NCBI GenBank assembly: GCA_963847185.1
Contig: CAWJYV010000001.1
Coordinates: 192,001-256,000, forward strand
Direction: 5' to 3'
From: an uncultured Methanosarcinaceae archaeon
GTDB lineage: Archaea; Halobacteriota; Methanosarcinia; Methanosarcinales; Methanosarcinaceae
Length of the DNA stretch: 64,000 nt
Every line of letters starts with the position of its first letter. The stretch's first letter is position 1. A program made the translations under genes and the position numbers. Positions 21,741-40,657 of the stretch are shown one piece after another. Under the pieces are notes generated by a model. That model did not search any database and had not been told where the DNA came from. It worked only from the letters and a program-made list of their open reading frames with translations.

Positions 21741-22748
21741 TTAGAGAGAGGAAGTAGCAGTCTTCCTCTCTCCATGTGCAGGATGCCAGCGTAGAAAATG
21801 ATTCTGAACGCGTTCAAAGACAGCCATTATCCCTATAACAACCCCTGTCATCAGAATCATTCCAGCAATTACCTTGTCATAATTTGCAAATTGGTGATAA
21901 TACTGGATATACCAGCCAAGTCCTGATGTCGCAGCAATCATTTCAGCAACTGTTAAAGTGATAAATGAAAGTATCAATGCTATCATTGCACCCGAAAATA
22001 TAGAAGGCAATGCAGCAGGCAGGAGAATTTTCCTGATCATCTGGTAGTCCGAAAGACCCAGTGTGCGTGCAGAGTTGATGAGGCGGGAATCCGCTGAGAA
22101 AACCCCGTAAACCGCGCCAACAAGGATAGGCCAGAATGCTCCAATGAAAATTAAAAAAATTGAGGATGCCCTGAAAGTCGGTAGAAGAACGATAGAATAT
22201 GGTAAATACACAGTTGCCGGGATAGGAGATACCGTTTTTGCAATGGGGTATGCTACATTATACAGCCTTTTTTTCCAGCCTGCATAAAGTCCTATTGGAA
22301 TAGCAAGGGCAAGAGCAAGGAAATATCCTGTAAGAAGGATGCCAAGAGAACTGATTACCCCCTCTGTCATTTGCCCTGTGTCGGTTTGGAACACCAGGAA
22401 GACTTTTGCTGGACCTGGAAAGATGAAAGAATCGAGAAGCGCAAGTTTTCCAAGAAGCAGCTCCCAGAGAAACAATCCCAGGGATATGATTAGAAATATA
22501 TCAGTGGTTGAAACAATATTTTCATAATTTAAGTACAACTTTGCTCCGTATATGACCGTAATCAGAAGAAGAAAGGCAACAAATGCCCTATTGTCGTTTA
22601 CCGCCTGTTCGGGTGAATCCGGAAATCCAACTGTCATAATAAGAGTAGCAAATAAAATGGTAAAAACAGCGACTGACCTGAGAATATTGTTGGATATTAT
22701 GCTGCCCCTTCCGGCTACAGTGCCTAATCTAAAGCTATTTTCTGACAT
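21741..22748 (-). CDS. ABC transporter permease, SsuC/TauC/NrtB type
   Basis: Multiple TM helices, EAA-like loop LINSARTLG, AEM...GLG motif; extra N-terminal TM segments. Confidence 0.9.
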   Translation of the reverse strand: MSENSFRLGTVAGRGSIISNNILRSVAVFTILFATLIMTVGFPDSPEQAVNDNRAFVAFLLLITVIYGAKLYLNYENIVSTTDIFLIISLGLFLWELLLGKLALLDSFIFPGPAKVFLVFQTDTGQMTEGVISSLGILLTGYFLALALAIPIGLYAGWKKRLYNVAYPIAKTVSPIPATVYLPYSIVLLPTFRASSIFLIFIGAFWPILVGAVYGVFSADSRLINSARTLGLSDYQMIRKILLPAALPSIFSGAMIALILSFITLTVAEMIAATSGLGWYIQYYHQFANYDKVIAGMILMTGVVIGIMAVFERVQNHFLRWHPAHGERKTATSSL

Positions 22749-23566
22749 TATACAAACTCCTTCAGTTCTTTTTCCTGCTTTTTGAGCTCTTCTATCATCT
22801 CCCCATACAATATCGAAAGAAGATGCGATTTTAGAGCAAGATAATTTGGATCAATACTAAGATCTTTACGGTGCCTTGGGCGGGAGAACGGCACTTCAAT
22901 CACTTCTTTTACACTCCCGGGCGAGGGAGTCATGATAGCAATTTTATCTGAAAGCAAAAGTGCTTCGTCCACATCATGGGTAACAAAAAGTACAGTCTTA
23001 CGCTGCTCTCCTTCTGACCACAGATGCAAAAGAAGGTCCTGCATGTATATTCTATTAAGGGAGTCAAGAGCCCCAAAGGGTTCGTCCATAAGGAAAACTT
23101 TAGGGTCCATAGAGAACATTCTGGCAATTGAGGCACGCTGACGCATTCCACCTGAAAGTGTACCTGGATATACATCCTTAAATTTCCCAAGCCCTACCAG
23201 ATCAATAAACTTCTGCGCCAGTTCCTCTATATTCCTTCGGCCTCCAATTTTGTTCGAATGTTCAATCGCAAAGCAGATATTTTCGAAAGTTGTCATCCAG
23301 GGAAAAAGTGAATAATCCTGAAATACGGTACCACGATCGGTTCCTGGTCCCTTTACCTGGATATCATCTATTAGAACTGAGCCATCTGAAGGGGGAAGCA
23401 AACCCGATACTATATCAACTATTGTACTTTTCCCACAACCTGAAGGGCCAATGAGGGAAATGAACTCTCCATTTCCTATATTCAGATTAACGTTTGAGAG
23501 CGCTTTATAGCCCGTACCGTTATTTCCATAGGATAATGAAATGTTCTTCAAATCAATCGTTGCCGT
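22748..23566 (-). CDS. ABC transporter ATP-binding protein, SsuB/TauB type
   Basis: GPSGCGKS, LSGGMRQR, LMDEPFGALD, FVTHD; the SD-positioned start is an ACG at 23564-23566 (TTG at 23551 is the next candidate). Confidence 0.92.
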   Translation of the reverse strand, partial: TATIDLKNISLSYGNNGTGYKALSNVNLNIGNGEFISLIGPSGCGKSTIVDIVSGLLPPSDGSVLIDDIQVKGPGTDRGTVFQDYSLFPWMTTFENICFAIEHSNKIGGRRNIEELAQKFIDLVGLGKFKDVYPGTLSGGMRQRASIARMFSMDPKVFLMDEPFGALDSLNRIYMQDLLLHLWSEGEQRKTVLFVTHDVDEALLLSDKIAIMTPSPGSVKEVIEVPFSRPRHRKDLSIDPNYLALKSHLLSILYGEMIEELKKQEKELKEFV

Positions 23567-24126
23567 TTTTATCCCTCCATAAAAATTTAAAACCGGAACG
23601 GGATGAAGTATGATATTGATTTTTTTCCGAATATAGATTTGATTTATAATTCATAAGATACACCAGTAATAGCTCACAGGTCATAGATTAAGGAGTAATC
23701 TTGCCTGGATTATTCGATTCTTGTCTCTTTTGACCTCAAATTCCTTTCTTAATTCATTTTAAAACCTAAAATTAATACACAGTTTCATTCAGTATCCAAA
23801 AACTTGAAACTATTTGGAAGTGAATGCTATAACAACCCTTCATTAACCGAAGACTCAATAATGTAACACGAAAACAAGAGATTTATACGCTGAGAAGTAA
23901 GCAATTATTGGCAGAGTAATTATGATTTTGAACTTTTTGCGGCAAAAAAGCTTCAATAAAGCAGAAAAAATCGAAAGAATGAGGCAAAATTGCCTCAATT
24001 AAACGGTTTGCGTACAAATGAAGGCTATTTTTACTCAAATATCGACGTATAAATTTCTCATTATCCTATGGACACCTCAGCAACGGTTTTTTTTGAGATT
24101 AATCAAAAAATTTGAAAGAGGTACTT

Positions 24127-25263
24127 ATGGATAAAAAACACATATTAGGGATATTTATTGCTCTTATTGTGCTTGCAGGTATTGGTGTTATTCTACTAAA
24201 TCCAAGTGATTCTTCGGATTCGAGTGGTTCAAAGAAAGTTAATACTCCTCCTGTTCAGCAGAGTGGCAATACTTCAGCACCTGTTCAGCAGAACGCATCG
24301 AGCTCCGGAGCTAAGACTGTAAGGCATGGATATCTTCCCTCAAATGGAGATGCTTTGATCTTTATAGCAAAGGAAGAGGGCTTCTGGGACCAGGAAGGTT
24401 TAAACGTGGAGTTGTATCAGTTTACAAAAGGTACAGAAGGTTACAATGCATTATTTGGCAATAAGCTTGATACAGTAGGAGCTGGAACGTCAGATCCTGC
24501 CACTTACATTGCACAGGGAGCAGATATAACAATTATCGGCGGGCTGATGAGTGAAGGTCAGTTTCTGGTAACTGCCCCTGAAGATGCAAAGGATCTTGCA
24601 GACCTCAATAATTGGCAGGGTAAAAAAATTGCCACAATTACCATGTCCAACGGAGACCTTATCTATAAGGCTGCACTGAAAAAAGCAGGTATAGACTGGA
24701 AAAAGGAAGTAATATTCCTTGAGTTAGGGTCACCCAATGCGGTGCTGGAAGCGGTCAAGACTGGAAAAGCCGACGGGGGAATAATATGGATTCCTTATGA
24801 GATACTTGCACAAAATCAGGGTCTGTCCATAGCATCTTACTCTTATCAATACTATGATAACCACCCCTGCTGCCGGATTGCGCTGAAGACTGAAACCCTG
24901 AATGAAGATAGGGATACCTATGTGAAGTTTGAAAAAGGCCTTATTAAGGCTTACAAGTTCTTCAGCGAAAATCAAAATGAATCCGTCGATGATATCCAGA
25001 AATATGTTAATGTTGATAAAGAGGCAATCCGCCAATCAACCTGGAGTAATTATTTCTTTGCGTCCCCTGATCCCAATACAAACGGAGTAAAGGAATATTA
25101 CCAGATGATGAAGGACAGCGGGTACATCGATACGGATGTCAAGATAGAGAACCACATCGACAGTACAGTATACAAACAGGCTCTCGAAGAATTGATCAAA
25201 GAAAATCCTGATGACCAGTTCTATCAGAAGCTGCTCTCTGAACATAAAGAAATGAACGAGTGA
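24127..25263 (+). CDS. ABC transporter substrate-binding protein, SsuA/NrtA type, N-terminally anchored
   Basis: TM anchor, Ser/Gln linker, GYLP..GD...IAKEEGF, HPCC motif; GAGGT SD before ATG 24127; divergent from the ATPase/permease genes. Confidence 0.88.
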   Translation: MDKKHILGIFIALIVLAGIGVILLNPSDSSDSSGSKKVNTPPVQQSGNTSAPVQQNASSSGAKTVRHGYLPSNGDALIFIAKEEGFWDQEGLNVELYQFTKGTEGYNALFGNKLDTVGAGTSDPATYIAQGADITIIGGLMSEGQFLVTAPEDAKDLADLNNWQGKKIATITMSNGDLIYKAALKKAGIDWKKEVIFLELGSPNAVLEAVKTGKADGGIIWIPYEILAQNQGLSIASYSYQYYDNHPCCRIALKTETLNEDRDTYVKFEKGLIKAYKFFSENQNESVDDIQKYVNVDKEAIRQSTWSNYFFASPDPNTNGVKEYYQMMKDSGYIDTDVKIENHIDSTVYKQALEELIKENPDDQFYQKLLSEHKEMNE

Positions 25264-25439
25264 TCGTAAGCATCGGGTAAATTCAGAAGAAGTATTGTCT
25301 AAAGAAAAATCGGAAAAATCAATCATATAGTCATAAGCATGGAGAGCATTATACTCTTCAGTTTATGATATCTTATTTTTCGTATCAAGCTTAAAATAAA
25401 TGTTGATTTTGTTCCGATTTATACTACCCGAGAATATCA

Positions 25440-25703
25440 ATGAAGGAACTTATGGACAAAAAATATCTGCTTATCGGGGGTTTATGTGCTATTTTTGTGC
25501 TTGCGGGCATCTTTTCAATTTTACTAAAACCCAGCAGCTCTTCGGATTCGAGGAGATTACAGGACTTGTATACCCCACCTATTGTTGAGTGCTGCAGTGG
25601 TTTTGATAATGTCTCCATGAATATCTCGGATGACACAAATAATTCTACATGTAAGCCTGAAACTCTCAGAAACGTAGCTAACTCTCAAAAGGTTATTAAA
25701 TGA
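25440..25703 (+). CDS. Small membrane-anchored protein duplicating the N-terminus of the upstream binding protein (possible relic)
   Basis: MDKKYLLIGG..IFVLAGIFSILLKPSSSSDS...TPP parallels MDKKHILG..LIVLAGIGVILLNPSDSSDS...TPP. Confidence 0.5.
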   Translation: MKELMDKKYLLIGGLCAIFVLAGIFSILLKPSSSSDSRRLQDLYTPPIVECCSGFDNVSMNISDDTNNSTCKPETLRNVANSQKVIK

Positions 25704-26091
25704 TTTGGAGTTGAAGACAGAGATTTCTTAAAAAGAAAGCTTAAATATAAAAACCTAATCGATCCACAATTCATTTCTTGTTTTTCCTCTTTTTCAACCT
25801 GTAAATTTTTTGATATTAATCATCATAAAATGATGACTCTCTGATCATATTCTCTCAAAATGAAGGAGTTGCTTTTATATGGTCTTTTTTGTTTACTATT
25901 TCTACTTTTGATAAGATTTTATGTATTGATAAAGTAAACAGAAAAACCTATTTGTGTCTCAATTTTGTGAGCAAAATTGAGCTTTCAGAATAATGTTGAG
26001 ATCAAGTTAATAGTTTGCATGGAGGTGATTTAGGCACTTTTTGCCGTAAAAAAGGGTTTTTAATACCAATAATGAGTATTATATTTTGTTA

Positions 26092-26107
26092 GTTCACAAT
26101 TGAGAAT
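26092..26107. promoter_or_regulatory. Copy of palindromic operator candidate (14/16)
   Basis: GTTCACAATTGAGAAT vs consensus GTTCACAATTGTGAAC. Confidence 0.4.
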
Positions 26108-26649
26108 TAGTGTTTGTAGAATGATAAAAGGCTACGATTGTGGACAATTTAACTCTGCAACCTGAATACTCTGGGAAGTGGCTTAAGAGTTTTCTAAGAA
26201 TACAGAGAAAACCGGATCCAAGATATATAAACAGAAAAATAAGGGAGGTGATATTTACCTTTAAAAGAGGTTTTAATCTAGGTAGATGTATAATAAATTA
26301 TTAACTTAAAACTGTAAAAGTGTTTGGCAATTTCTACTCTGGATTGGCTAAATATGGAAACCTCAATTGTTATAATGGACACAAAATTGTTTGCACAACC
26401 CACAACACACTAAGTGTAGAATTCCAGTACATATCGAACAGGCATAAAATCATTTGTACAATCCACATCCACAAAAATTCACAAAAATATCAATTTTAAT
26501 ATTTTCTTTAATAGTAATGAAAAAAACCCATATCTAACTCTTTAGCGGAAAATATTGGAGATACCGGAATAGATGCTATAATTGTAAATTTTTGCTGGAT
26601 GTAAGTACAAATTAAAGACTCGAAAAGTAAAAAGAACTTAAGAAAGACT

Positions 26650-26720
26650 GCTGAGATGATGGGAAGGTCACGCAGTGGACTGCAGATCCATTAATCCCGG
26701 TTCGAGTCAGGGTCTTAGCT
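26650..26720 (+). tRNA. tRNA-Cys(GCA), degenerate / probable pseudogene
   Basis: Acceptor GCTGAGA/TCTTAGC + discriminator T; anticodon arm GTGGA-CTGCAGA-TCCAT; T arm CCCGG-TTCGAGT-CAGGG with one G.A mismatch; D stem ATG/CGC poorly paired; no encoded CCA. Confidence 0.8.
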
Positions 26721-27130
26721 TAAAGAGTTTACTGCAAAGCTGAGCATTACATACGCCTCATGTTTTTCTTTTCTCAGTTCATTTTCGAAGATCACTCTAA
26801 AAGTCTAAGTAAAAGTCTAAGCCTCAGTGATTGAAATTCCTCTCCTGTTGTGATGTATCCCGTTCCGAACCTACCTGCTCAGCTGCGAAAGTAGCGGATT
26901 ATTTAGGCTGCTGCACAAAAAAGAGTGAATCTCAAGCGAGCCGGGGTGAGAAAGTGTAAATTCAAATATCGTACCTTCTGCTTCTGTCTTTTTAGTTATA
27001 TGCATATTTTATCCACTTATTCTCTTATGTATGTCCGGTCCTGCAAGCACTTGGTTAACATCGTTAACATTATAAATTTGTAAAGCAATTTAAGTGTAAG
27101 ACAAGAAAAGAAATTACATGAAGAGGAAAT

Positions 27131-27410: not shown

Positions 27411-27434
27411 GGGAACTGAATCTATTGGCCCTTA

Positions 27435-29648: not shown

Positions 29649-30388
29649 GACATTGGTATCTAAATACTGATATATATTATGAGAACTTATATCTCTTGAT
29701 GAACTGCCCAAGATGTAAGAGTCTCGATCATAATAAGAATGGTAAAGTTAATGGCCGTCAACGCTACAAATGCTCTGATTGTGGATATAATTATTCAGTA
29801 GAGCTAAAATCAACTGCTAGTTCCGCATCTGTTAAGAGACAGGCTTTACAACTCTATCTTGAAGGATTAGGATTTCGGTCAATAGGGCGTTTTTTGGGAG
29901 TAAGTCATGTTTCCGTCCAAAAATGGATAAAGAAATTTGGTCAGGAGCTAGAGGAACTAAAAAGCGAAAATGAGATATCTATTGTTGAAATGGATGAGAT
30001 GCACACTTACATCGGTAACAAAAAAAATATTGCTGGATCTGGATTGCTGTTGATAGATTTGGGAAAAAGTTCATCAACTGCTCTTTTGGCAGCAGAGGAA
30101 CAGAAACTGGACAAAAACTCTGGGAAAAATTAAAGGAAAAAAAGATTGAAAAAGTGATGACTGATCACTGGAGGGCATATGCAGAGTTCGTCCCAGATAA
30201 AATTCATACTCAATCCAAAGCAGAAACGTATACTGTTGAAGGATATAACAGCATACTTAGGCACTTTCTGGCAAGATTGAGAAGAAAGACAAAGTGTTAT
30301 ACTAAGAGTCTTGAAATGCTAAAGTACTCAGTTCTTCTCTTAATGAAATACAGAAATAATGAGTTAACTATATTTAGGTAACAATGCC
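29649..30388 (+). mobile_element. IS1-family insertion sequence (740 bp), apparently intact
   Basis: IRs GACATTGGTATCTAAATA / GGCATTGTTACCTAAATA (rc); 8-bp target duplication TAAAATTT at 29641-29648 and 30389-30396. Confidence 0.92.
29699..30381 (+). CDS. IS1 transposase InsAB (programmed -1 frameshift)
   Basis: CPRC...CSDC zinc ribbon, HTH, EMDEMH; A8 run at 30020-30027; the -1 frame reads KYCWIWIAVDR...MTDHW...VEGYN without a stop to 30381. Confidence 0.9.
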
Positions 30389-30626: not shown

Positions 30627-31871
30627 TTAGAGAGGTTCCAGCATCTTTGTTGGTACGAATTCCTGTTTTATAATCCGGTTCTTAAGCATAGTACAGAGTC
30701 TTTCTGCTCTGGCCCTATCTGACTGCCTCAGGGATACAGGAATAGTCCCTTCAGCCAGCTCTATTGATCCGAGTCTTGCACGGAATACCCCTTCGGAGCA
30801 CTGAAGTGTACAGGTGCCACAATTGATACAGAGATCTCTGTTGATGATACAGTCATTTGAGATTGCCTCCGTGGGACAGGTGCGCATTGCGGCACAATCA
30901 GGATGGTGCAGGCATCTGTCTTTTTCGACACGGATCAATTTGTCTGTATCTCTCCAGATATGTCCATAGTTTACTTTTGAGTGTGCAGTACGCCCGTTCA
31001 CATCTGATACTGGAAGTGGAACATTCTGGTCCAGAATTTTTAATCCTGTGAGTATTTCATCGTCAAGAACAGGTATTGGAACGGCAAGTGAAGTCAGACA
31101 CTCAGGCCCGTGCGCAGTTTTCATTCCGCCCATCATAGTGGGGTCCATTCCCTTCATGTCTGCAAAGGCAGAGACATTCGGTTTATCCGGACTGGCTCTG
31201 GTTCCTTTTCCTATAATATAACCAGGTGCCCCATTTAACAGGACCCGAGTACCTACACCTATTGACCTGTGCGAGGGGTCATTCTGCAGTGGGTTTATTT
31301 CACCGCACCCTGATACGGTTGTTTCTGTAAAAGGACCTGTCAGGCCTGTAACTGAGAAAATAGTGCTAATCGTGGATGAAGTAGGATTTATAAGTGCATG
31401 GTAATTTTTAAATGCAAGTCTTGTGGTAATGATTCTGGCATAGTCGATATCGTCAAGGGTAACTCTATTCTCATAACGCCTGCCATGTGCCTCTACAAGA
31501 ACATCGATTTCTTTTCCTTTTACCAGGTCCCGGAAAAGATGGCCTCCTCCATAATGATCATCTGCATGTGAAGTTCCGTTGATAACCAGATCCACGACTC
31601 CGAGGCGCTCATTAGGACAGGGACCGGGTTGAGCAGGTACACCATTTAGCCAGATAGCATCTGCCCTTTCAAAGCTGCATTTTCCTGCAACCGGTACCAT
31701 CATAACTGCCATAGTGCCTGACATCACGCCAAATGTTCCGGTCGTGACTACATCCACATCGTCAACAGTCACATTTTTACCTTCACGCACCATGGACTTG
31801 AGCTCGGCAGCTGTAAGAATTATGGCTTCTTTGTTTGTAATCTTCTCATTAATTTGTTCAATCGTTTTCAT
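30627..31871 (-). CDS. DUF39 / homocysteine-biosynthesis-family protein with C-terminal ferredoxin domain (methanogenesis marker 16-like)
   Basis: TIEQINEKI, DVDVVTTGTFG, GPCPNERLG, YGGGHLF, SGCGEINPLQNDP; Fe-S motifs CxxxxxCxxxxxCP and CINCGTCxxxC. Confidence 0.85.
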   Translation of the reverse strand: MKTIEQINEKITNKEAIILTAAELKSMVREGKNVTVDDVDVVTTGTFGVMSGTMAVMMVPVAGKCSFERADAIWLNGVPAQPGPCPNERLGVVDLVINGTSHADDHYGGGHLFRDLVKGKEIDVLVEAHGRRYENRVTLDDIDYARIITTRLAFKNYHALINPTSSTISTIFSVTGLTGPFTETTVSGCGEINPLQNDPSHRSIGVGTRVLLNGAPGYIIGKGTRASPDKPNVSAFADMKGMDPTMMGGMKTAHGPECLTSLAVPIPVLDDEILTGLKILDQNVPLPVSDVNGRTAHSKVNYGHIWRDTDKLIRVEKDRCLHHPDCAAMRTCPTEAISNDCIINRDLCINCGTCTLQCSEGVFRARLGSIELAEGTIPVSLRQSDRARAERLCTMLKNRIIKQEFVPTKMLEPL

Positions 31872-31891: not shown

Positions 31892-32551
31892 TTACAATAT
31901 CCTGATGTCCTCAAGCCTGACATGAAGTCCCGATGGCTTTTGAAAGCACATATTTACCAGAGCCGTATGTGCAAGCCCTATCATACAGTTACCAGGCAGG
32001 AAATACTGGCGGGTTCCAAAGATGGGAGGTTTCTTTACAGTACTGGCAATTCCTTCGAAGGCATGCACATGGTATGCCTGAACATCATGGGCATCTTCTT
32101 TTCTGGCAGCCATGGGACCTACGGTATGGCATTCAATTACGCCTGTGATCGGGTTTGTACTGAGAACTCTCAAAGCGTGATATACAGGACATCCAGGGCC
32201 TGCGGGACGGCCGGTTACTAGATCTCCTTTTTTAATATCCCATTTTTCTACAAGGTCTGCTCTGAAAGGCACTATGAATTTACGTGCTGAAGGCTCATTA
32301 GGGAATGGAAGGAGGACAAAATCATACTCTTTCCCGGTAACGTCTGTGCCTGAGAAAGTGGGATTTCTCACCTGAAGCGATATTTTTTCTCGATTTGCAA
32401 TTTTCTCCGGATACACGGTTTTCTCTATGCTGTAGAAAGGACACATATCTATCTCTATTAATCCAGCTTCGAGCCTGGAAACGAAGTCAGAACATGTCTG
32501 AGAGCCGCAAGCCCCACAGTCTTTACCCGGAGGATTCCATACACCCACCAT
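31892..32551 (-). CDS. (Fe-S)-binding protein
   Basis: N-terminal PGKDCGACGSQTC...CPF putative Fe-S domain; GRPAGPGCP and C-terminal C..H motifs. Confidence 0.8.
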   Translation of the reverse strand: MVGVWNPPGKDCGACGSQTCSDFVSRLEAGLIEIDMCPFYSIEKTVYPEKIANREKISLQVRNPTFSGTDVTGKEYDFVLLPFPNEPSARKFIVPFRADLVEKWDIKKGDLVTGRPAGPGCPVYHALRVLSTNPITGVIECHTVGPMAARKEDAHDVQAYHVHAFEGIASTVKKPPIFGTRQYFLPGNCMIGLAHTALVNMCFQKPSGLHVRLEDIRIL

Positions 32552-33255
32552 CAGTCACCTCTGTATAAGGGATCTGGCATATTCAGTGGTCTGATAACTC
32601 CAAAATGGTTCTTCCATCCGATCTCTTTTTTCCCTATACATACAGTACATACACCAAGTGGAGGGGCACCTCTAAGCATGATCTGGTCAGGCCCTATATC
32701 CGGATGCTCGGTAATCCGTCGCATCAGATATCTCAATCCTGTCCCCTGAATTGCATTTGTTTCTACAATGTCAATATTAGAGACAACTTTTCGGATACTT
32801 TCCCTGAAAACCTCTTTTTCTGCCTGGGATACCAGGTCAGTCTTGGTTACAACTGCCACATCTGCAAGAGCAAGTAAAGGTGCCATTTTCAATGGGGAGT
32901 TTGTTCCTGAGATTGCACTGACGACTGCAATTCCAAGAGATTGTGTAGTGTAAGGAGTACATCTGAGACAGAGGCCTGCACTCTCAATTATAAGGATGTT
33001 TCTTGAAAGACTCTCAGCCCAGCGTAATGCGTCGTCAAGGACCAGAATTCCCATATGGTCAGGACACACATCTCCGGAATAGATCTTTTTGACAGGAATC
33101 TCGAACTCTTCTGCAAGTTCTTGGTCCTCTGTTGCATGTACAACGTCAATTTTCAGGAAGGCAGGAAGTGATCCTTCAGGGAGATTTTTTATAACCTGAC
33201 GAATGACAGCTGTTTTTCCTCCGCTTGGAGGACCTGCGATAATGAGCAGCTTCAT
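32551..33255 (-). CDS. HypB/UreG-like (G3E) GTP-binding protein
   Basis: GPPSGGKT, CPDH, ESAGLCLRC, TKTD, C-terminal CTVC. Confidence 0.88.
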   Translation of the reverse strand: MKLLIIAGPPSGGKTAVIRQVIKNLPEGSLPAFLKIDVVHATEDQELAEEFEIPVKKIYSGDVCPDHMGILVLDDALRWAESLSRNILIIESAGLCLRCTPYTTQSLGIAVVSAISGTNSPLKMAPLLALADVAVVTKTDLVSQAEKEVFRESIRKVVSNIDIVETNAIQGTGLRYLMRRITEHPDIGPDQIMLRGAPPLGVCTVCIGKKEIGWKNHFGVIRPLNMPDPLYRGD

Positions 33256-33261: not shown

Positions 33262-34080
33262 TCACACCCTATTCAGCTGCATTTTCTGTCCGGCTGGAGT
33301 CATCAAAATCTTTGAAGAAACTGATGAAAAAGCAGCTCCCTGTCTGAGTTTTTCTCTGATATGATGGAGCTTGTCTTCGATTAAAGCAAGATCTTCAATA
33401 AGATGCTGCTCTTCTCCAGTCGATTCTATTACAGACGCAACTCCCCCATGTCTCATCACTATGCGTCTGTCTGCCGTAAGAGCAAGATAAGGATCGTGTG
33501 TTACAAGGATGACTGCTTTGTTTCCTCCTTGAAGAGACTGGATGACACGGTCTTTAAAAATACCTGCATTTTCGATTTCATCAAGCAGAAGGATCGGGGT
33601 ATCACCGATTACAAGTGCGTCCGCGATCATAAGGGAACGAGTCTGCCCTCCGGATAAACCGCTCATTCGGCTTTTAAGGCTAATCGCTTCACCTGTAAAT
33701 GTATTTGCAAGATTTACGGTTTCATTAAGCAAGTCTTTCCTGCCTGGTTTCCGTGCCCTGATATGCATAAGCAGGAATTCTTCGACTGAAAGATCTGCCA
33801 GACAGCGTGTATTCTGGGTTATCAGAGCAATCGGTTTGAAGGCTGGTTCTCTTACATAAGATTCGGGAGGTTCCTGACCATCGATAAGGATTCGTCTGCC
33901 TGTAATACTGTCTCCCTGCGCAAGAGTTTCAATATCATTAATTAAAGCTGACTTTCCTGAGCCAGTTGGGCCTACAATCGCGAGAGTATCTCCTGGTCTT
34001 ATTTCTATGGTTTCAAATCCTTCCTTTTCTCCAAATCTGTTTTTCCCAGATTGAACCGTAAGAGTGAATTGCTTTGTCAT
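33262..34080 (-). CDS. ABC-type ATPase without cognate permease
   Basis: GPTGSGKS, LSGGQ, LLLDEIENAG, LVTHD; first gene of an apparent four-gene operon. Confidence 0.85.
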   Translation of the reverse strand: MTKQFTLTVQSGKNRFGEKEGFETIEIRPGDTLAIVGPTGSGKSALINDIETLAQGDSITGRRILIDGQEPPESYVREPAFKPIALITQNTRCLADLSVEEFLLMHIRARKPGRKDLLNETVNLANTFTGEAISLKSRMSGLSGGQTRSLMIADALVIGDTPILLLDEIENAGIFKDRVIQSLQGGNKAVILVTHDPYLALTADRRIVMRHGGVASVIESTGEEQHLIEDLALIEDKLHHIREKLRQGAAFSSVSSKILMTPAGQKMQLNRV

Positions 34081-34120
34081 GTACACAATTGTTAAGATTT
34101 GGTATTTATAAGTTTTTCCA
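34081..34120 (-). promoter_or_regulatory. Promoter (BRE/TATA) with operator-like palindrome at the start codon
   Basis: Minus strand GGAAAAACTTATAAATA about 25 nt before the ATG; GTACACAATTGTTAAG (34081-34096, 13/16 to consensus) abuts the ATG. Confidence 0.55.
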
Positions 34121-34322
34121 CAAAATAGAAGAATTTGTCCTTTAAAGTCAATATCTGAGTAAATCGTTTCCCAAATAGGAAATAAAATATGATAAAATGG
34201 AAAGAATGGATTAATTCAAAGCTATAATTTTTCCTCGGCGACAGTTTGAGGAAATTAATACAAAAATTAGATTGAAAACAGCTATCTGCTTCTTAAGATT
34301 GTGTGAAATTAATCACATATAC

Positions 34323-35315
34323 TCAAATATCTTTACCAGGTGTCAGGTCACATCCAGTACATTGAAGACACATTGTGCGAGATTCACATACACTCAGTGA
34401 CTGACAGTCAAGCATATTCTTGAGCATACCTCCAAGCTTTAGTAGCCTTGCAGCGTCTGGTCTATTGATCTTCACATTTTTTCTAAGAGGATGAGGAGAT
34501 ATAGGTCTGAGAATTGGAATTATGCATCTGCCCGTAAGAAGCTTGATACCCTTCTTGACTGTTTCGTCGCTTTCCCCAAGGCCGATAATGAAGTTTGAAG
34601 AGACCCGATTTCTACCAAATATATTCACTGCATTGTCGAGTGAATCAAGGACATTATAGAGTGAGAGGTCAGGACAAACACGACGGAAAAGCTCGGGGTC
34701 CATAGTTTCTACATTATATTTTATTTCGCATGCGCCTGCAGAGTACAGTTCTTCTGACGAATCATTTGTCGGATAAACAGAAACACCTACTGGAAGATTA
34801 TAATCCTTTGTAAGCTGCTTTACAACCTCTGCCATTCTCTGGACTTCTTTTTTTGGCGAAACAGCTACACCGCTTGTAAGAGAAATTGCCTTCAATTCAC
34901 CTGTCGAATAGGCCTCCCCAACCATCTGAAGAACTTTACTGATGTCTTTTATTCCACCCTGCATCTTCGGAACAGGACAGAACTGGCAGTCGTATATACA
35001 TTTTTCAGATAGCGTGATGTAGGCCTGTTCCGGACAGTGGCAAAGCGGACGCTCAAGCACTCCCCTGGCAATTACCTCATCACCCTTCAAGACGACAACA
35101 TGTTCATCTTCTGGCTCTATATGCAAAGGAGATAGGTTATTGATTGTGAGCCTGACCCTTCTCTTTCCCGATTTGAGGAAGATTGAAGTGCCACCTGCTC
35201 CGGGGCCAGCTGTAGCTTTGCTTTCAAGTTGATCAGGAAAAAGGGAATCATCTACCTGAACACTTCCTATGCTTATAAGATATGCCTTAATATTTGCATC
35301 AAGTTCTTTGTCCAT
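34323..35315 (-). CDS. Radical SAM protein (biotin-synthase-related archaeal family)
   Basis: CIYDCQFC motif, HCPEQA, IIGLGE, C-terminal CxxCxxC (CLQCTGCD). Confidence 0.9.
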   Translation of the reverse strand: MDKELDANIKAYLISIGSVQVDDSLFPDQLESKATAGPGAGGTSIFLKSGKRRVRLTINNLSPLHIEPEDEHVVVLKGDEVIARGVLERPLCHCPEQAYITLSEKCIYDCQFCPVPKMQGGIKDISKVLQMVGEAYSTGELKAISLTSGVAVSPKKEVQRMAEVVKQLTKDYNLPVGVSVYPTNDSSEELYSAGACEIKYNVETMDPELFRRVCPDLSLYNVLDSLDNAVNIFGRNRVSSNFIIGLGESDETVKKGIKLLTGRCIIPILRPISPHPLRKNVKINRPDAARLLKLGGMLKNMLDCQSLSVCESRTMCLQCTGCDLTPGKDI

Positions 35316-35385
35316 AATTATGCACTTCAGAAAGCAAAATATGAAGTGTATTTGCTCAGTACACTTGTCGCGTATTTATTATATT

Positions 35386-35425
35386 GTTTACAATTGTGAA
35401 CCAAATAATATTAACAATTGTGAAC
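35386..35425. promoter_or_regulatory. Two copies of palindromic operator candidate upstream of the radical SAM gene
   Basis: GTTTACAATTGTGAAC (35386-35401) and TTAACAATTGTGAAC (35411-35425), next to an AT-rich TATA-like stretch at 35374-35385. Confidence 0.65.
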
Positions 35426-35863
35426 TTAAAAAGGTTATGACTAGAATTTAATTTTTTTAGTAAGTTGAGTATGAACCGAAAACTAAAGAAGTTCTATTTT
35501 TAACAACTGACGAAGGTTCAAGCCTTTTGAATATCTCAAAATAAGCTCTTTTCGGTGTCTGGAATTTTAATCCAATTTCGATCTTGCGGATTCCACTGCA
35601 TTCCTACTAACGATCTTTTCTGCAAAACTGTCAGCAAGGAATTCAAGTCTGTCTTCCGAACGATTTTTCGTAAATTGATAATAGAGAGCTGTTTCTCTTA
35701 CTTCCCCGTTTTCCACTGATCTTTTGAATTCTCTGAGAGCCCCCTAAACCTTGCCTGCACTTAACAAAAGCAGTGGCTTACCCTCGGATCTTGGGATTTG
35801 TAGCAGTAGACAAATACAAAAGGCAAAAAAGAAATGGAATATGATGTGTTCATGAATTTTTGA

Positions 35864-36694
35864 TCACGTCTGAGAAACGAGCACATCAGAAGCTCGATAC
35901 TGAATTGGAAGTTTTGACTTAGATTGATGGTATTTTGTTTTATTAATAGATCTCAGATCAAATTCTCTAAATACCTCATCGCGTATCGCCAGAAAATCAG
36001 CACTTGTTCTATCCCTTTTTCTTGCTAAGGTTACATCAATTATTTTCTTCACTTTACCTGGACCAGCTGTCATAACAACAATCTTATCCGCCAGAAACAC
36101 TGCTTCTTCAATATCATGCGTAACAAACACTACTGTTTTTTTCTTCTCCTGCCAGATTTTTTCAATCTCCTCCTGCATGCTCATTCGTGTCATTGCATCA
36201 AGGGCTCCGAAAGGCTCATCCATAAAAAGAATCTCCGGATCAACTGCGAGAGCTCTTGCGATTGCAATTCTTTGCTGCATACCTCCAGAAAGCTGGTTTG
36301 GATGATGTTTTTTGTAATCCGACAAACCGACCAATTCGAGATATTCTTCAGCTATCTCACAACGTTTCTTCTCATCAAACCCTTTAGACTCCAGCCCCAG
36401 CTCTATATTTTTGATTACCGTTCTCCAAGGGAGCAGTCCAAAATTCTGGAATATAGCAACTCTATCAATTGAAGGTTGGATAACATCATCTCCGTTAATC
36501 TTAATAGTTCCAGTGGAAGGCCTGTCAAAGCCTGCTATCATATTCAGGAGCGTTGTTTTCCCACATCCACTCGGGCCAAGCAGGCAGATGAATTTTCCTT
36601 CTTCAATCGATAAATCGACTTTTTCAAGAGCTATAGATCTACTTTTGTCCTTCAGCTCGTATACTTTTGATACTCCTTCAACGGAAATAAACAT
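35864..36694 (-). CDS. ABC transporter ATP-binding protein, SsuB/TauB type
   Basis: GPSGCGKT, LSGGMQQR, FMDEPFGALD, FVTHD. Confidence 0.93.
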   Translation of the reverse strand: MFISVEGVSKVYELKDKSRSIALEKVDLSIEEGKFICLLGPSGCGKTTLLNMIAGFDRPSTGTIKINGDDVIQPSIDRVAIFQNFGLLPWRTVIKNIELGLESKGFDEKKRCEIAEEYLELVGLSDYKKHHPNQLSGGMQQRIAIARALAVDPEILFMDEPFGALDAMTRMSMQEEIEKIWQEKKKTVVFVTHDIEEAVFLADKIVVMTAGPGKVKKIIDVTLARKRDRTSADFLAIRDEVFREFDLRSINKTKYHQSKSKLPIQYRASDVLVSQT

Positions 36695-36695
36695 A

Positions 36696-37469
36696 TTAAT
36701 TCACCCTTTCTAAGGACATTCCCCATTGCTTTTGAACCCAGTTTTCCAGAAGCCTGATGGTCTTATCCAATAAAAGCCCTGTTATACCTATGCAAATGAT
36801 ACCAGCAAGTACGAGGTCTGATCGAATAGAATTTCTTGCGTCAATTATTAAGTACCCCAATCCTGATTGAGCTCCAACCATTTCTCCTGCAACCAGAAAT
36901 ACCCAGGCTGATCCCAATGCCATATACAGTCCGTTTGTTATCATTGGAAAAGCTGCTGGAAAGATAATTTTTGACAATAAATATGGTTGTTTGATACCAA
37001 AATTCTGAGCTACTTTAAGGTATACAGGATCTACTTTTTTAACTCCGGAGATAGTTGATAGAAGAACTGGATAAAAAGCCGCTATAAAAATTATCACGAC
37101 AGCAGGCAAATCACCTATTCCAAACCAAAGCACTATAAACGGAAACCATGCAATAGGAGAAATAGGTCTTAAAACCTGCACCACAGGGTCGATAAAAGCC
37201 CACAATTTTCCATAAGATCCAAGAATTAGGCCTAAGATAATTCCTGCAACTGATGCCGTCAAATAGCCAGCTAGGAACCTTAATAAGCTAACTTGGAAAT
37301 GAGTCGTAAGACTGCCATCATTAATTAGTTCAACTATTCCTTCGAGAACTTTAAATGGAGAAGGAAGAAGAGAAGATTCATATCTTCCTGTAAGAACTAC
37401 CATTTCCCAGATCAGAATCAGCAAAGTGAGACTTACAATCGCAGTACCTAATTTTCTTATTTTTACCAT
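36696..37469 (-). CDS. ABC transporter permease, SsuC/TauC type
   Basis: LLPSP, LRPISPIAWFP, GEMVGAQSGLGY, six TM helices. Confidence 0.92.
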   Translation of the reverse strand: MVKIRKLGTAIVSLTLLILIWEMVVLTGRYESSLLPSPFKVLEGIVELINDGSLTTHFQVSLLRFLAGYLTASVAGIILGLILGSYGKLWAFIDPVVQVLRPISPIAWFPFIVLWFGIGDLPAVVIIFIAAFYPVLLSTISGVKKVDPVYLKVAQNFGIKQPYLLSKIIFPAAFPMITNGLYMALGSAWVFLVAGEMVGAQSGLGYLIIDARNSIRSDLVLAGIICIGITGLLLDKTIRLLENWVQKQWGMSLERVN

Positions 37470-37474
37470 TGTTC

Positions 37475-38452
37475 TCACTCTGCCGCTTCAATAAATGAGT
37501 TATCCACAAATTCTGAGTATTTAGGAGGATTCTTTAATTGCCCCATTTCCACAAGATATTGAGATAGTTCATTGTAATCTTTCTCTTCCAGCTTCAGGTT
37601 ATTGTAGGAAATCCATTGGAGTGACATGTCAAGTACATCAGGTTTGATTTTCATATATTTGGTAGCTGTATCTAATACCTCGGGGTCTTTAGACTCAGCT
37701 TTTTCGCCTGCCTTAACGTATTCCTTTATAAATTCTGCTGCAACTGTCGGATTGTTTTTGATGAAGTCGCCTCTAAGCACAAGCCCACAGCATACGGAAT
37801 CTTTCCATAAATCCTGTGATTCAAATAGTACCTTCCCGTTGCCACTTGCTATCGATATTGCTCCAAAAGGCTCGGCTACTATATATCCGGAAATTCTGCC
37901 TTCAGATAAAGCAGCTGGCATTTCAGGTGGCGGGAGCTCTACAATATTCAAATCATTGGATGTAAGATCATTTTCCTTTAACATTTTGTATAAAAGAACG
38001 TTATGAGTTGAAAGCCTGTGAGGAATTGCAAAAGTTTTTCCTTTCAAATCAGCAACCTGTGTAATATCCTTAGATACTATCACCACATTACCATCTCTAT
38101 GCCCCAGGGCAACAGTCTTCAGATCAATTCCTTGCTCCTTTGATTTCATAGCAAGCTCAATTAACATAGAAGCCCCGTCAACCTGACCTGTATTTACCGC
38201 ATCACTAAGTTCAGTCCAGGAGCCAAACTTTATCAATTCCACTTTAAAGTTCTTTGACTCATTTGCCGAAAGATCATTCTCAACATATAGAGGAAGGGCA
38301 TGGGTGAGCGGAAGATAACCAATTTTCACAGTCTTGACTTCAGTTTGCTCAGAGCCTTCTTCTTTATTACCCCAACTGGCAAGACTGAACACCAGGGACA
38401 TTAGTATGACAGCCAGAATAGCTATAGCAATTTTTTTCTTCATCATATCCAC
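37475..38452 (-). CDS. ABC transporter substrate-binding protein, SsuA/NrtA type
   Basis: Signal/anchor peptide, KIGYLPLTHALP, FAIPH..STH, VAEPFG, VCCGLV. Confidence 0.9.
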   Translation of the reverse strand: MDMMKKKIAIAILAVILMSLVFSLASWGNKEEGSEQTEVKTVKIGYLPLTHALPLYVENDLSANESKNFKVELIKFGSWTELSDAVNTGQVDGASMLIELAMKSKEQGIDLKTVALGHRDGNVVIVSKDITQVADLKGKTFAIPHRLSTHNVLLYKMLKENDLTSNDLNIVELPPPEMPAALSEGRISGYIVAEPFGAISIASGNGKVLFESQDLWKDSVCCGLVLRGDFIKNNPTVAAEFIKEYVKAGEKAESKDPEVLDTATKYMKIKPDVLDMSLQWISYNNLKLEEKDYNELSQYLVEMGQLKNPPKYSEFVDNSFIEAAE

Positions 38453-38493
38453 TTCAATTTAAATTTCATTCTTTTTATACTCAATTCGAGTTT

Positions 38494-40509
38494 TTACTTC
38501 CATCCAAGAACCTTTCTTTTCTCCTGAATGTCCGATACAATCCTGTTTGCAAGCTTTGCAGAATCTATTTCAACCACCATTACTGAACCCAGGGTCTTTT
38601 TGGTATCTTCATACAGGAATTTCGTGACTTTTTCCGAACCCTGTACAGGAGGGTGCACACAATGGTACGAATTTATTCCCAGTAATCTGAAACCAAGGGC
38701 AGCTCCCAAGCCCTTTTCATTTGACCATTCGGGGCTTGCAAGTGCAAATGGCATGTCTTTGATATCTTTACCTGAAGCATCAGATAAGGCTCTGAATAAA
38801 GCAGAAGCTCTGGCATTGTCAATACACTCTCCCATATGCCATACTGGTGGAAGGTCAGGCTCTAAAAATTCTCTTAGCTCTCTTCCGGTTTTTTCAAAAG
38901 CTGTTTGGTTGCAGAAACCCAGTTTCATTAAGGGGAACGAAGCGCAGCCATTGGTTAGGACCAGAATGTTATTCTCTATCAGTTTAGCTGCCACATCAGC
39001 AACTGCTTTTTCATAAATAACCCTTGTATTGTTGCATCCTACCAAATTTACTACACCGGCAATCCTGCCTTCTTTCAACGCATCTGCAATAACATTTATA
39101 CTTCCAAAGCGGTTTACAATATATTCCAGTGAAAAGCCTATTTCTGCTTTAACTTCATAATTGGGAATGAAGACCGGGACGTCTCTTCTCGATGCGAAAC
39201 TTTCAACTGCTCTTTCGACTATTCTTTTCGCCAAATTTTCTGTTTCTTTTAAATTTGAGTGAGTATGGTCATAACCATAATGCTCTGCACCTGGCAGCCT
39301 CGTTGAATCACTGGTTGTAATTACTGTTGTTTTAAAGCATTTTGCCACGTCCATGATTGTCGGGAAGATATCCTGAACGTCGGCCACCCAGAGGTCAATT
39401 GCACCGGTTCCGAGTATAAGCTCCGCTCCAATCGCATTTGATAGAGGTATTACCCCTCCATACCGATACATTGCAGAAAGTCCCGAGCAACATATACCAT
39501 AAAACTGAATTCCTTCTGCACCATTTTCTTTTGCAAGACTTACAAATTCCTCACTTCTCCCCTGCTTTATAATCTCACTTACGAGAAGAGGAGAATGCCC
39601 GTGAATTGCGATATTCACATAGCCTTTTTTTAAAGCTCCAATATTTGCCATAACAGTGCTTCTCTCCGGCAGACCGAAAAGACTGTCCATGGCTATTGAA
39701 GACCCGAGGGCGCTAGTCCATGCAAAAGCAAGACCACATCGCAGGAACTGCTGCATAACGTTCTTCCAATCTCCATCGGTTCCTGTGGTTGTTCTATGAA
39801 GAGCTTCAAATACTTCATGATAAGCGCCAACCGGAAGGATGTCTAGATCTTTCCATACCTCTATTCGCTCCGGCGTCGCAAAGGAATTTAATGTTTTATG
39901 TTTGTCAGGTACTGTTCTGGATAAATCCTCAAGAAGAGCATCGACTACCTTCAAAGCGATTTCTTCTATTGTTTTTCCTTCAGTATCGATGCCTAATTGA
40001 TCAGCAGATTTTCTTAATTTTTCCTCGCCTGCGATCGGTAATTTCAGGCTGCCTTCGGCGGAAGCTTTTAAGGCAAGCATTATTTCTCGTCCTCTGGCAC
40101 CATGCGCAGCCACTCCCGCAGCAACCCATCTTAGCAGGTTTCTGGCAACAATAAGGTCTGCGTCTGCTCCACATACCCCCCTGGGGCTTTTCCTGGTGAC
40201 CCTGCATGGTCCGTTATTACAATTGCGGCAGCATATACCCGCCATACCGAAGTTACAATGTGGCTTCTGCTGATCAAAACGATCAAAAGGAGTTTCACAG
40301 CCAACCTTCTCCATATGCAATAGCATACTTTTAACCGCTGGATCGGGAGTTTGTTTTAATACATCTTCCTTTGTTGGAAAGCTTTTTTTGTATTCAGATA
40401 CAGCTTCCGTATAATCAGTGAAGTCTTCCCCACCATGGTGATTGTGACGATCGTGCTTATCTTTGTGAAAATGATCATAAGGATGGGGGTGATTTTCAGG
40501 CAGCTTCAT
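38494..40509 (-). CDS. cooS: Anaerobic CO dehydrogenase catalytic subunit homolog (CooS/HCP superfamily), non-canonical
   Basis: D/B-cluster motif CNFG..GICCRNCNNGPC...CG; C-cluster region HGH, GICC, VGCNN, NGCA, GECID, EK; DVQD in place of DxQC; His-rich N-terminus. Confidence 0.9.
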   Translation of the reverse strand: MKLPENHPHPYDHFHKDKHDRHNHHGGEDFTDYTEAVSEYKKSFPTKEDVLKQTPDPAVKSMLLHMEKVGCETPFDRFDQQKPHCNFGMAGICCRNCNNGPCRVTRKSPRGVCGADADLIVARNLLRWVAAGVAAHGARGREIMLALKASAEGSLKLPIAGEEKLRKSADQLGIDTEGKTIEEIALKVVDALLEDLSRTVPDKHKTLNSFATPERIEVWKDLDILPVGAYHEVFEALHRTTTGTDGDWKNVMQQFLRCGLAFAWTSALGSSIAMDSLFGLPERSTVMANIGALKKGYVNIAIHGHSPLLVSEIIKQGRSEEFVSLAKENGAEGIQFYGICCSGLSAMYRYGGVIPLSNAIGAELILGTGAIDLWVADVQDIFPTIMDVAKCFKTTVITTSDSTRLPGAEHYGYDHTHSNLKETENLAKRIVERAVESFASRRDVPVFIPNYEVKAEIGFSLEYIVNRFGSINVIADALKEGRIAGVVNLVGCNNTRVIYEKAVADVAAKLIENNILVLTNGCASFPLMKLGFCNQTAFEKTGRELREFLEPDLPPVWHMGECIDNARASALFRALSDASGKDIKDMPFALASPEWSNEKGLGAALGFRLLGINSYHCVHPPVQGSEKVTKFLYEDTKKTLGSVMVVEIDSAKLANRIVSDIQEKRKVLGWK

Positions 40510-40614
40510 TGTTCAAAGACCTCTATAAGTTTTACTGAATCCAACAAGGACATCTTCATTCCTGGGTAGTTTTTATCAAGTATCTAAGGGACTACGAGCT
40601 TTCAAGCTCACATC

Positions 40615-40657
40615 TGCCTTATATAATAGCTTTAGAGTTTTGTTCACAATTGTGAAC
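40615..40657 (-). promoter_or_regulatory. cooS promoter with perfect 16-bp palindrome
   Basis: GTTCACAATTGTGAAC at 40642-40657; TATA-like TTATATAA at 40619-40626. Confidence 0.7.

Follow-up and report, generated by a model that had tools for sequence, protein, structure and literature searches.

What brings a carbon monoxide dehydrogenase (CODH) gene with its own importer, a radical S-adenosylmethionine (SAM) gene, a coenzyme M (CoM) synthase-like gene, a nitrogenase-like fragment and a tRNA-Cys gene together in one region of an archaeal genome? The question is raised by a 64,000-nt stretch of DNA from an uncultured Methanosarcinaceae archaeon (assembly GCA_963847185.1, contig CAWJYV010000001.1; G000:C1:192001-256000 in our numbering), referred to here as the window, which belongs to a genome of 4.04 Mb that is 99.8% complete. 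An earlier note on the window had read these genes as a single sulfur-scavenging system. We propose instead that the window holds two independent accessory modules, the CODH gene cooS with its ATP-binding cassette (ABC) transporter and a block running from the radical SAM gene to a second copy of the CoM synthase gene MMP16 (MMP16b). Both modules are probably wired into the Methanosarcina sulfur regulon by the palindromic operator TTCACAATTGTGAA and work in sulfur supply. Genes in the window were called from an open reading frame (ORF) listing with Pfam and NCBIfam profile scans, and every minus-strand gene that the note had named was recovered by these means (Table 1).

Searching for GTTCACAATTGTGAAC with up to 3 mismatches yielded five matches in the window (starting at 26092, 34081, 35386, 35410 and 40642) against 0.34 expected, a number that was reached in 0 of 100 shuffles. 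Over the whole genome, 11 sites with at most 2 mismatches were found, compared with 0-3 for eight control palindromes shuffled with the half-site composition kept, and 7 sites are perfect. The perfect 14-nt core occurs 250 times in 59 genomes of the genus, 51 of which carry at least one copy, and the reversed-pattern control gave 0 copies in each of the 59. The note had placed the same palindrome on three minus-strand transcription units. This holds for the cooS and radical SAM units, but the site at the ATPase gene is weak, with 3 mismatches; weak palindrome-like sites are found at the same position in two relatives (G004 and G005).

The position of the palindrome is also conserved. A perfect copy precedes cooS by about 150 nt in four of four other Methanosarcina loci (G006, G016, G013 and G058), and two or three tandem copies precede the radical SAM gene in three of three relatives (G004, G013 and G005). 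The cooS promoter carries the TATA-like sequence TTTAAATA at 40684-40691 on the minus strand, and such a box precedes the start of the palindrome by about 20-27 nt at the promoters of cooS, tRNA-Cys, cysK, iscS and metY. At the promoters of the radical SAM gene, MetX and metY, tandem copies follow each other at a spacing of about 24 nt. The palindrome thus lies between TATA box and gene start and is kept in orthologous promoters, as an archaeal promoter-proximal operator does, at a position where an archaeal repressor would block initiation.

The genes next to the palindrome indicate what it controls. In the genome of the window, four sites precede a SepCysS paralogue (SepCysS2) followed by an O-acetylhomoserine sulfhydrylase gene, two precede MetX, two precede a 95-aa ORF beside a nifH-like gene, and three extra tRNA-Cys genes begin 8-11 nt past a palindrome. 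The neighbours of perfect sites were annotated in four other genomes (G004, G006, G014 and G046). They comprise cysK (479 bits to TIGR01139) with cysE; iscS, with an adjacent iscU-like NifU_N gene at the one locus scanned (L107); metY, followed at one locus (L119) by a MetX-like alpha/beta hydrolase; SepCysS2 with metY; a cysteine desulfurase gene with FdhD; and a nifH-like neighbour. No metal transporter was seen at any palindrome site examined. As the palindrome precedes cysK-cysE, iscS(-iscU), metY(-metX), SepCysS2 and extra tRNA-Cys genes, it marks a sulfur regulon, and the marked set is a cysteine/methionine/Fe-S regulon. The units of the window therefore do share a real cis element, as the note had held, and across the genus that element marks sulfur-assimilation genes. 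The arrangement resembles the sulfur regulons of bacteria (S-box, Cys T-box and CymR/CysB-type), in which one signal governs cysK-cysE, iscSU, metY-metX and uptake systems; it differs from them in using an archaeal promoter-proximal palindrome with a putative binding protein, and in taking in extra tRNA-Cys genes and a SepCysS paralogue. In article listings and abstracts, no relevant match was found for the palindrome text, for a Methanosarcina cysK/cysE regulon or for a SAM riboswitch together with cooS.

One ORF was considered as the regulator. It encodes 108-144 aa in the gap between iscS and cysK, matches Cro/HTH_3 weakly (E about 1e-3) and has palindrome sites on its flanks in five loci. 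The genome of the window, despite its perfect sites, has only a 37% identical paralogue and no close orthologue of this ORF, and three genomes (G007, G047 and G048) have an orthologue yet zero perfect sites. Because the distributions of sites and orthologues disagree, the ORF is not established as the regulator.

Further features were noted around the palindrome sites. A conserved 156-158-aa protein is encoded amid the sites next to SepCysS2 (L001 7315-7791; L007 18315-18791 in G004; L110 2883-3353 in G046); it gave no Pfam match even at E 0.05, and in the genome of the window it ends in a CC motif. The 95-aa ORF mentioned above starts 41-81 nt past paired palindromes beside a nifH-like gene in three genomes (L003 7256-7543, L111 6208-6495 and L118 2886-3173) and has no family match. 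Downstream of metY, PdxS (SOR_SNZ; L001 11662-12568) falls into two ORFs (105 and 195 aa), suggesting a frameshift or stop.

The first module consists of cooS and three transporter genes. In an alignment with solved CODHs, Asp380 of the window CooS falls on Cys353 of 7ERR_A, which is Cys333 of ChCODH-II after a 20-residue tag offset, while the remaining cluster ligands and the acid-base residues are conserved. Among 79 sequences (the window protein and 78 relatives), the Cys333-equivalent column holds Asp in 75, Glu in 4 and Cys in 0, and the other eight checked positions are invariant. The N-terminus is rich in histidine, with 8 His in the first 26 residues and a median of 9 His in the first 45 across the 79 sequences. 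Substitution of Cys333, a His-rich extension and NitT/TauT-type ABC neighbours are the features by which Inoue et al. (2019) describe clade B of the CODHs, and their text records a single archaeal case, Methanosarcina horonobensis, more than 70% identical to Clostridia and likely transferred (PMC6344411). On these sequence features and that Methanosarcina case, the window CODH is assigned to clade B, group B-1. It shares with this clade the Asp at the Cys333 position, the His-rich N-terminus and an operon with a binding protein of about 320 aa that resembles 3UN6, a permease and an ATPase. In contrast to bacterial clade B operons, it has an archaeal promoter with a palindromic operator common to Cys/Met/Fe-S genes, and the two "conserved hypothetical proteins" of those operons were not identified in the window.

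According to the available texts of papers from 2019, April 2026 and July 2026, no function could be inferred for clade B. The characterised member, RfCODH of Ruminococcus flavefaciens, carries Asp415 at the site, oxidises CO at 13 mU/mg and has blocked gas channels, and Bohm et al. (2026) propose an unknown imported substrate for it (PMC13592312). In that text, blocked channels and very low CO oxidation are documented for RfCODH only (PMC13592312). RfCODH was not among the solved-structure matches to the window CooS.

Close orthologues of the window CooS (81-90% identity) were found in 5 of 58 other genomes of the genus, with a partial copy in G067, whereas canonical CooS, 36-38% identical to it, occurs in nearly all genomes of the genus, this one included. 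The locus was fetched for four of the five genomes with a full-length orthologue. All four (G006, G016, G013 and G058) have the same gene order, cooS, binding protein, permease, ATPase, and in none of them is the radical SAM-MMP16 block adjacent. Conversely, the block of radical SAM, ATPase, GTPase, Fe-S protein and MMP16 genes is kept without cooS in G004, G005 and G013. The view of the whole region as one conserved cluster is therefore rejected, cooS-ABC being apart from the radical SAM-MMP16 block in relatives. Of the note's single system, the physical linkage is lost, since the units are unlinked in related genomes, an outcome that the note itself had named as speaking against it. What remains is the shared operator. 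The note's description of the CODH as atypical and tied to its own transporter stands, given the Asp380 substitution and the conserved four-gene order.

The cooS-ABC operon was acquired from Clostridia. Its nearest relatives outside Methanosarcina are in the Bacillota, at 60-79% identity. A scan for clade B loci, taking one genome per species, gave 80 loci, 3 from Methanosarcina (88-89% identity to the window CooS) and 77 from bacteria, led by Herbinix, Acetivibrio and Clostridium at 76-79%, so that the link to anaerobic Firmicutes suspected earlier is real. Label-free clustering of ORFs of at least 80 aa over these 80 loci ranked CooS first (78 loci), then the transporter genes (65-68 of 80), LysR (15), cysK (13) and metY (11). 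The cluster representatives score 448 bits to TIGR01139 for cysteine synthase and 630 bits to TIGR01326 for O-acetylhomoserine sulfhydrylase. Lower in the ranking follow two-component systems (7 loci), FeoB (7), metIQ (6) and nitrogenase-like genes (4-6). Within 10 kb, cysK, metY, metIQ, nitrogenase-like genes or sulfur riboswitches are present at 26 of the 77 bacterial loci.

An Rfam scan took in 45 of these 77 bacterial loci. In five of the scanned loci, all in Clostridium, the clade B operon has a SAM riboswitch (68-90 bits) as its direct 5' leader, and the five operons so led have two gene orders, cooS-first and binding-protein-first. One further SAM riboswitch lies on metNIQ, 5 kb upstream of a clade B operon, and one T-box leads an adjacent divergent metY. 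The clade B operon is thus itself a member of the S-box regulon in some Clostridium genomes. The main texts of the clade B papers are silent on sulfur neighbours and S-box leaders and contain none of the terms cysteine synthase, sulfhydrylase, methionine, LysR and sulfide, and CODH goes unmentioned in a paper on the cysteine regulon of C. perfringens (PMC2940859). Taken with the bacterial loci, the shared operator suggests that the clade B class works in sulfur supply. A separate observation concerns a metagenome-assembled genome of the Burkholderiales (L056 9418-9508), in which clade B cooS is immediately preceded by a tRNA-Sec gene, with a SECIS element at the start of the contig.

The second module centres on MMP16b. 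The note had pointed to the homocysteine-forming sulfurtransferase as a member of the DUF39 family; this DUF39 gene is instead a second MMP16, scoring 503 bits to TIGR03287 against a cut-off of 364, compared with 587 bits for the canonical copy on contig C5, to which it is 46% identical. Of the genome's three DUF39 genes, L-ASST lies with its ferredoxin partner on contig C8, canonical MMP16 lies beside comDE and the cysteate synthase gene cs on C5, and the third is MMP16b. The C8 gene has the layout of L-ASST (COG1900a), while MMP16b lacks a CBS domain and an adjacent NIL-ferredoxin partner, and the homocysteine-forming role is therefore rejected for it. MMP16 is the CoM-synthase family of aldehyde-to-thiol sulfurtransferases. 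In M. acetivorans, MMP16/ComF (MA3299) is reported as the main CoM synthase, essential without exogenous sulfide (Chadwick et al. 2025, PMC12068725). In that text, genetic evidence that sulfoacetaldehyde is converted to CoM concerns MA3299 only, and an ATPase, a Ni-binding GTPase and a COG2000 Fe-S protein are described as often co-localised with MMP16, without an assigned role (PMC12068725).

MMP16b shares with MMP16/ComF the TIGR03287 score above cut-off, the DUF39 domain with ferredoxin insert and the same three helper genes ahead of it. Unlike MA3299, MMP16b is a second copy; it is linked to a radical SAM gene and stands under the sulfur operator. It is not clustered with the sulfoacetaldehyde-forming cs and comDE. 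The GTPase and the COG2000 Fe-S protein occur in the genome only within this block, and the radical SAM gene has a 51% identical paralogue on contig C7. About 10 of the 24 genomes of the genus that were sampled carry MMP16b, at 88-97% identity. Neighbours of the block in G004, G005 and G013 are ThiI or a cysteine desulfurase gene with FdhD, ThiM and ThiE, and in G005 SepCysS2, three tRNA-Cys genes and a nifH-like/nflD-like pair. Under the sulfur operator, MMP16b and its helpers may serve as a low-sulfide back-up for thiol-cofactor synthesis.

These properties invite the view that the whole region is concerned with the economy of CoM (2-mercaptoethanesulfonate): the transporters would import CoM or sulfonates, MMP16b would make CoM, the operator would sense it instead of the overall sulfur status, and the CODH would only give electrons. 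MMP16b does score above the MMP16 cut-off, and ssuA and ssuC of M. acetivorans are reported as a CoM-specific ABC transporter, induced upon CoM starvation of an MMP16 mutant (PMC12068725), although it is unconfirmed which M. acetivorans ssu genes are meant. The operator, however, precedes Cys/Met/Fe-S genes and not cs or comDE, and the canonical cs-comDE-MMP16 locus (L005) carries no site. Moreover, cooS-ABC is of Clostridial origin and present in 77 bacterial loci. The bacteria that carry clade B are not known to have CoM metabolism. We consider this explanation improbable.

What the transporters carry also bears on a second alternative. Both window binding proteins have a CC dipeptide at the same aligned position. 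The note had called the transporters SsuABC-like, which holds at the superfamily level only, because the scores fall below the curated cut-offs: for the set of the cooS operon, SsuA_fam gave 129.9 against 163.5, SsuC 122.5 against 347 and TauC 149 against 342, and for the second set SsuA_fam gave 98.5 against 163.5. [quoted passage not shown] Here too the scores stay below cut-off (SaoA 266 against 360, SaoP 161 against 295, SaoX 74 against 300), and the Pfam scan of the window showed no MerB-like gene. In S. aureus, ssuABC is CymR-controlled and induced by sulfur starvation (PMC13689551); it may encode the 3UN6 protein and is taken as a lead only.

In the second alternative, the ABC system would import nickel, zinc, another metal or an organometallic compound, which the His-rich N-terminus and the HypB-like GTPase would handle, and the link to sulfur would be incidental to the making of Fe-S and Ni enzymes. 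Inoue et al. proposed Ni import for the clade B transporters and noted the His-rich extensions, as their text states (PMC6344411). An AlphaFold model of the RfCODH binding protein predicts a metal site formed by two Cys with one or two His residues (PMC13592312), and the window binding protein is 3UN6-like and retains the CC motif. The kinship to SaoA and SaoP and the presence of FeoB near cooS in 7 of 80 loci point the same way. Against this, the SaoA, SaoP and SaoX scores are all under cut-off, and the authors of the RfCODH work argue that known Ni-binding proteins are far larger than these binding proteins (PMC13592312). The operator precedes cysK, cysE, metY, metX and SepCysS2, with no metal transporter at the sites examined. 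SAM riboswitches are known to act on methionine and SAM genes and not on metal uptake, and they are found as leaders of clade B operons. A role in metal supply is hence, in our judgement, an unlikely explanation.

The tRNA-Cys genes may show how the operator reached cooS. ARAGORN found 10 tRNA-Cys genes among the 64 tRNAs of the genome, five of which form a diverged family located in sulfur islands. The one in the window is the most aberrant of this family, with 71 nt and a weak D arm, so that the note's word "degenerate" is fair. In all five Methanosarcina genomes, the cooS promoter shares the architecture of the tRNA-Cys promoter cassette, which suggests the route by which the imported bacterial cooS operon joined the host regulon. 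Extra tRNA-Cys(GCA) genes were also seen outside the window. An array lies just upstream of SepCysS2 (C1:147019-148817, L001 7019-8820), and three of its four genes begin 8-11 nt past a perfect palindrome; others are at L007 15707-15799 and 19692-19783 and at L010 1548-3023. The available part of a SepCysS survey (PMC5424206) makes no mention of operator-controlled spare tRNA-Cys/SepCysS sets.

The same likeness could mean that the palindrome, rather than the operator of a sulfur sensor, is part of a tRNA-Cys promoter cassette that duplicates, or a hairpin in leader RNA, and has spread by recombination; cooS and the radical SAM gene would then have captured it without sharing any physiological control. 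The cooS promoter and the module at 26038-26107 do share the whole tRNA-Cys promoter architecture, and sites cluster in islands of 40-80 kb in G004, G006 and G046. Only the palindrome is shared, however, at the cysK, iscS, metY, MetX and radical SAM promoters, where the flanks differ; its distance from the TATA-like boxes is fixed, and the tandem spacing at radical SAM, MetX and metY fits cooperative protein binding. We judge spread of this kind quite unlikely. Ordinary CO metabolism or redox defence, in which the CODH would oxidise CO or reduce CO2 for energy or detoxification beside unrelated neighbours, is very unlikely: CooS does exceed the TIGR01702 cut-off, its closest solved relatives 6T7J and 6ELQ are active CODHs and it keeps every catalytic acid-base residue along with five of the six C-cluster ligands, but Asp or Glu replaces the cysteine in 79 of 79 sequences, the sole characterised clade B enzyme shows the low rate and blocked channels reported above (PMC13592312), a canonical CooS is retained elsewhere in the genome and the 29 largest neighbour clusters (clusters 0-28) include no CooC, CooF or hydrogenase.

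The nitrogenase-like fragment behind MMP16b matches the C-terminus of nitrogenase-like proteins of 429-430 aa from five genomes of the genus (84-92% identity). In G046 the intact orthologue (429 aa) closes a three-gene H-D-K operon (301, 486 and 429 aa), which, after a polysaccharide-transporter gene, occupies the site held by the MMP16b block here and in G004; in the window, too, a polysaccharide-transporter gene lies on the left side. The G046 proteins match the Mar enzymes over nitrogenases (9FMG, 9D9U), D with 238 bits to MarD against 116 and K with 296 bits to MarK against 88. The 9FMG entry is the MarDK2H2 structure (PMC12552129), and the Mar pathway supplies methanethiol to O-acetylhomoserine sulfhydrylase (PMC13474568). 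The likeness to the methylthio-alkane reductase MarBHDK and the isethionate reductase IsrBHDK, which are bacterial systems for nitrogenase-like C-S cleavage induced by sulfur limitation, thus lies in the H-D-K operon of the orthologue, and the downstream enzyme of the Mar system belongs to the palindrome regulon. In the window, in contrast to these systems, only 40 codons are left in place of a full-length K subunit. No palindrome precedes the G046 operon at one mismatch or fewer. Judged from these matches, the relic is the remnant of a Mar-type operon for a predicted C-S reductase lost in this strain, in keeping with the Mar-type origin and the partial decay that the note had suspected; the IS1-like element and the tRNA-Cys remnant are further marks of that decay. 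Insertion of the IS1 copy as the cause of the truncation is unsupported. Since G009 carries the same 40-codon relic directly after MMP16b, the truncation predates the IS1 copy or is independent of it. Separately, the nflD-like partner of the nifH-like gene at C9:23818-26717 is split, with residues 1-107 and 91-415 about 1.6 kb apart.

The features of the window are collected in Table 1. A gap of about 550 nt separates the cooS-ABC unit from the radical SAM gene, and the relic lies 60 nt beyond MMP16b, followed by the IS1-like element.

Table 1. Features of the window discussed in the text, with positions counted from its first letter.
Feature	Position	Strand	Basis or remark
Perfect 16-nt palindrome, cooS promoter	40642-40657		cooS ATG about 133 nt downstream
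cooS, Ni-CODH paralogue, 671 aa	38494-40509	-	TIGR01702 531 bits against cut-off 478; PF03063 499 bits
NitT/TauT-type substrate-binding protein, CC motif	37475-38452	-	Closest solved structure 3UN6, 236 bits
ABC permease (BPD_transp_1)	36696-37478	-	SaoP/TauC-like, under both cut-offs
ABC transporter ATPase of cooS operon	35864-36694	-	Pfam, NCBIfam
Two tandem palindromes upstream of radical SAM gene	35386-35401 and 35410-35425		Motif scan
Radical SAM protein	34323-35315	-	Weak likeness to BioB/LipA/LipS2 and MSMEG_0568 families, under all cut-offs
Weak palindrome, 3 mismatches, overlapping ATPase gene start	34081-34096		Motif scan
Soluble ABC-type ATPase without membrane partner, first of the MMP16 accessory set	33262-34086	-	Pfam, NCBIfam
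CobW/HypB/UreG-family GTPase	32551-33255	-	Single-copy in genome
COG2000 Fe-S protein (PMC12068725), PF04060 N-terminal cluster motif	31892-32551	-	Single-copy in genome
MMP16b, DUF39/HcyBio domain with inserted 4Fe-4S ferredoxin motif	30627-31871	-	TIGR03287 match
MarK-like nitrogenase-family relic, last 40 codons	30443-30565	-	Open frame; orthologue matches
IS1-like element, InsA-type zinc ribbon/HTH ORF and second frame	29696-30381	+	Pfam, ORFs
Diverged tRNA-Cys(GCA), 71 nt, weak D arm	26650-26720	+	tRNA scan; operator-associated tRNA-Cys paralogue family
Palindrome of decayed tRNA-Cys promoter module, 2 mismatches	26092-26107	+ (module)	Motif scan
Decayed tRNA-Cys promoter/operator module, then tRNA-Cys remnant	26038-26107	+	Inverted repeat with 40643-40711
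Second NitT/TauT-type binding protein, divergent from its ATPase/permease genes, CC motif (HPCC)	24112-25263	+	Pfam, NCBIfam
Second ABC ATPase	22748-23551	-	Pfam, NCBIfam
Second ABC permease	21741-22748	-	Pfam, NCBIfam
FilR1/Msr-family regulator domain protein, beside second transporter	21023-21607	-	One of at least 18 genome paralogues

Some genes around the modules were also noted. Divergent from cooS are a SAM-dependent methyltransferase gene (41081-41656) and a gene for a free-standing archaeal threonyl-tRNA synthetase (ThrRS) editing domain protein (PF08915; 41663-42091, plus strand). An 87-aa ORF at 25440-25703 (plus strand) copies the signal-peptide region of the adjacent binding protein and has an ECC motif; in G004 (L007 3619-3906) and G046 (L018 3947-4306), the binding-protein gene is likewise followed by a short ORF of this kind.

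Based on the operator, its regulon and the two modules, we propose the following course of events. In the resting state, a dimeric repressor would sit on the operator over the transcription start and would be released when sulfur, sensed as cysteine or a related signal, becomes scarce. The ABC system would then take up a small compound that contains sulfur, to be processed at the CODH's Asp-variant C-cluster into sulfide or a thiol for cysK and metY. In the meantime, MMP16b and its three helpers would sustain thiol-cofactor (CoM-type) synthesis at low sulfide.

A bolder version of the first module is that the clade B "CODHs" are not CO enzymes but desulfurases that reductively cleave C-S (or S-X) bonds. 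A small sulfur-containing anion would enter by their own ABC importer and be held at the Cys2-His metal site of its binding protein, and sulfide set free at the Asp-variant C-cluster would be fixed by cysK and metY. Methanosarcina would have captured this bacterial device and brought it under one sulfur repressor along with a CoM-synthase set for low sulfide and extra tRNA-Cys/SepCysS genes. We regard this version as speculative, with a minor chance of being right. From chemistry, thiocyanate, thiocarbonate/COS (carbonyl sulfide)-type species and thiosulfate would be candidate anions. COS is a known substrate of CODH, and beta-carbonic-anhydrase-like enzymes are known to hydrolyse COS and CS2.

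Several points weigh against the two sulfur-supply modules as proposed here. The response to sulfur is deduced from the content of the regulon, the operator-binding protein is only putative, with the lone tested candidate unsupported, and one genomic palindrome adjoins a helicase/transposase and may be due to chance. The divergent promoter of the second, left-hand transporter (23551-24112) carries no palindrome. Of the 77 bacterial loci, 51 show none of the sulfur genes within 10 kb and 20 are shorter than 15 kb, and the counts overstate the number of independent events because many cysK- or metY-positive loci are close kin (Butyrivibrio, Pseudobutyrivibrio). The S-box leaders are confined to loci titled Clostridium, with 0 of 20 in Lachnospiraceae, Selenomonadaceae, Proteobacteria and others. 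The sole demonstrated chemistry of a clade B CODH is the weak CO oxidation of the relative RfCODH, and the Cys/His metal site of the binding protein (PMC13592312), the His-rich N-terminus of the CODH and the HypB-like GTPase fit metal handling equally well.

For the organism, the operator appears to give a first outline of a sulfur regulon in Methanosarcina, one that takes in a second CoM-synthase set for conditional use and spare tRNA-Cys genes under operator control. For the clade B CODHs, a widespread enzyme class of gut, rumen and sediment, two unrelated regulatory systems, the archaeal operator and the bacterial SAM riboswitch, put CODH and importer among sulfur amino-acid genes.

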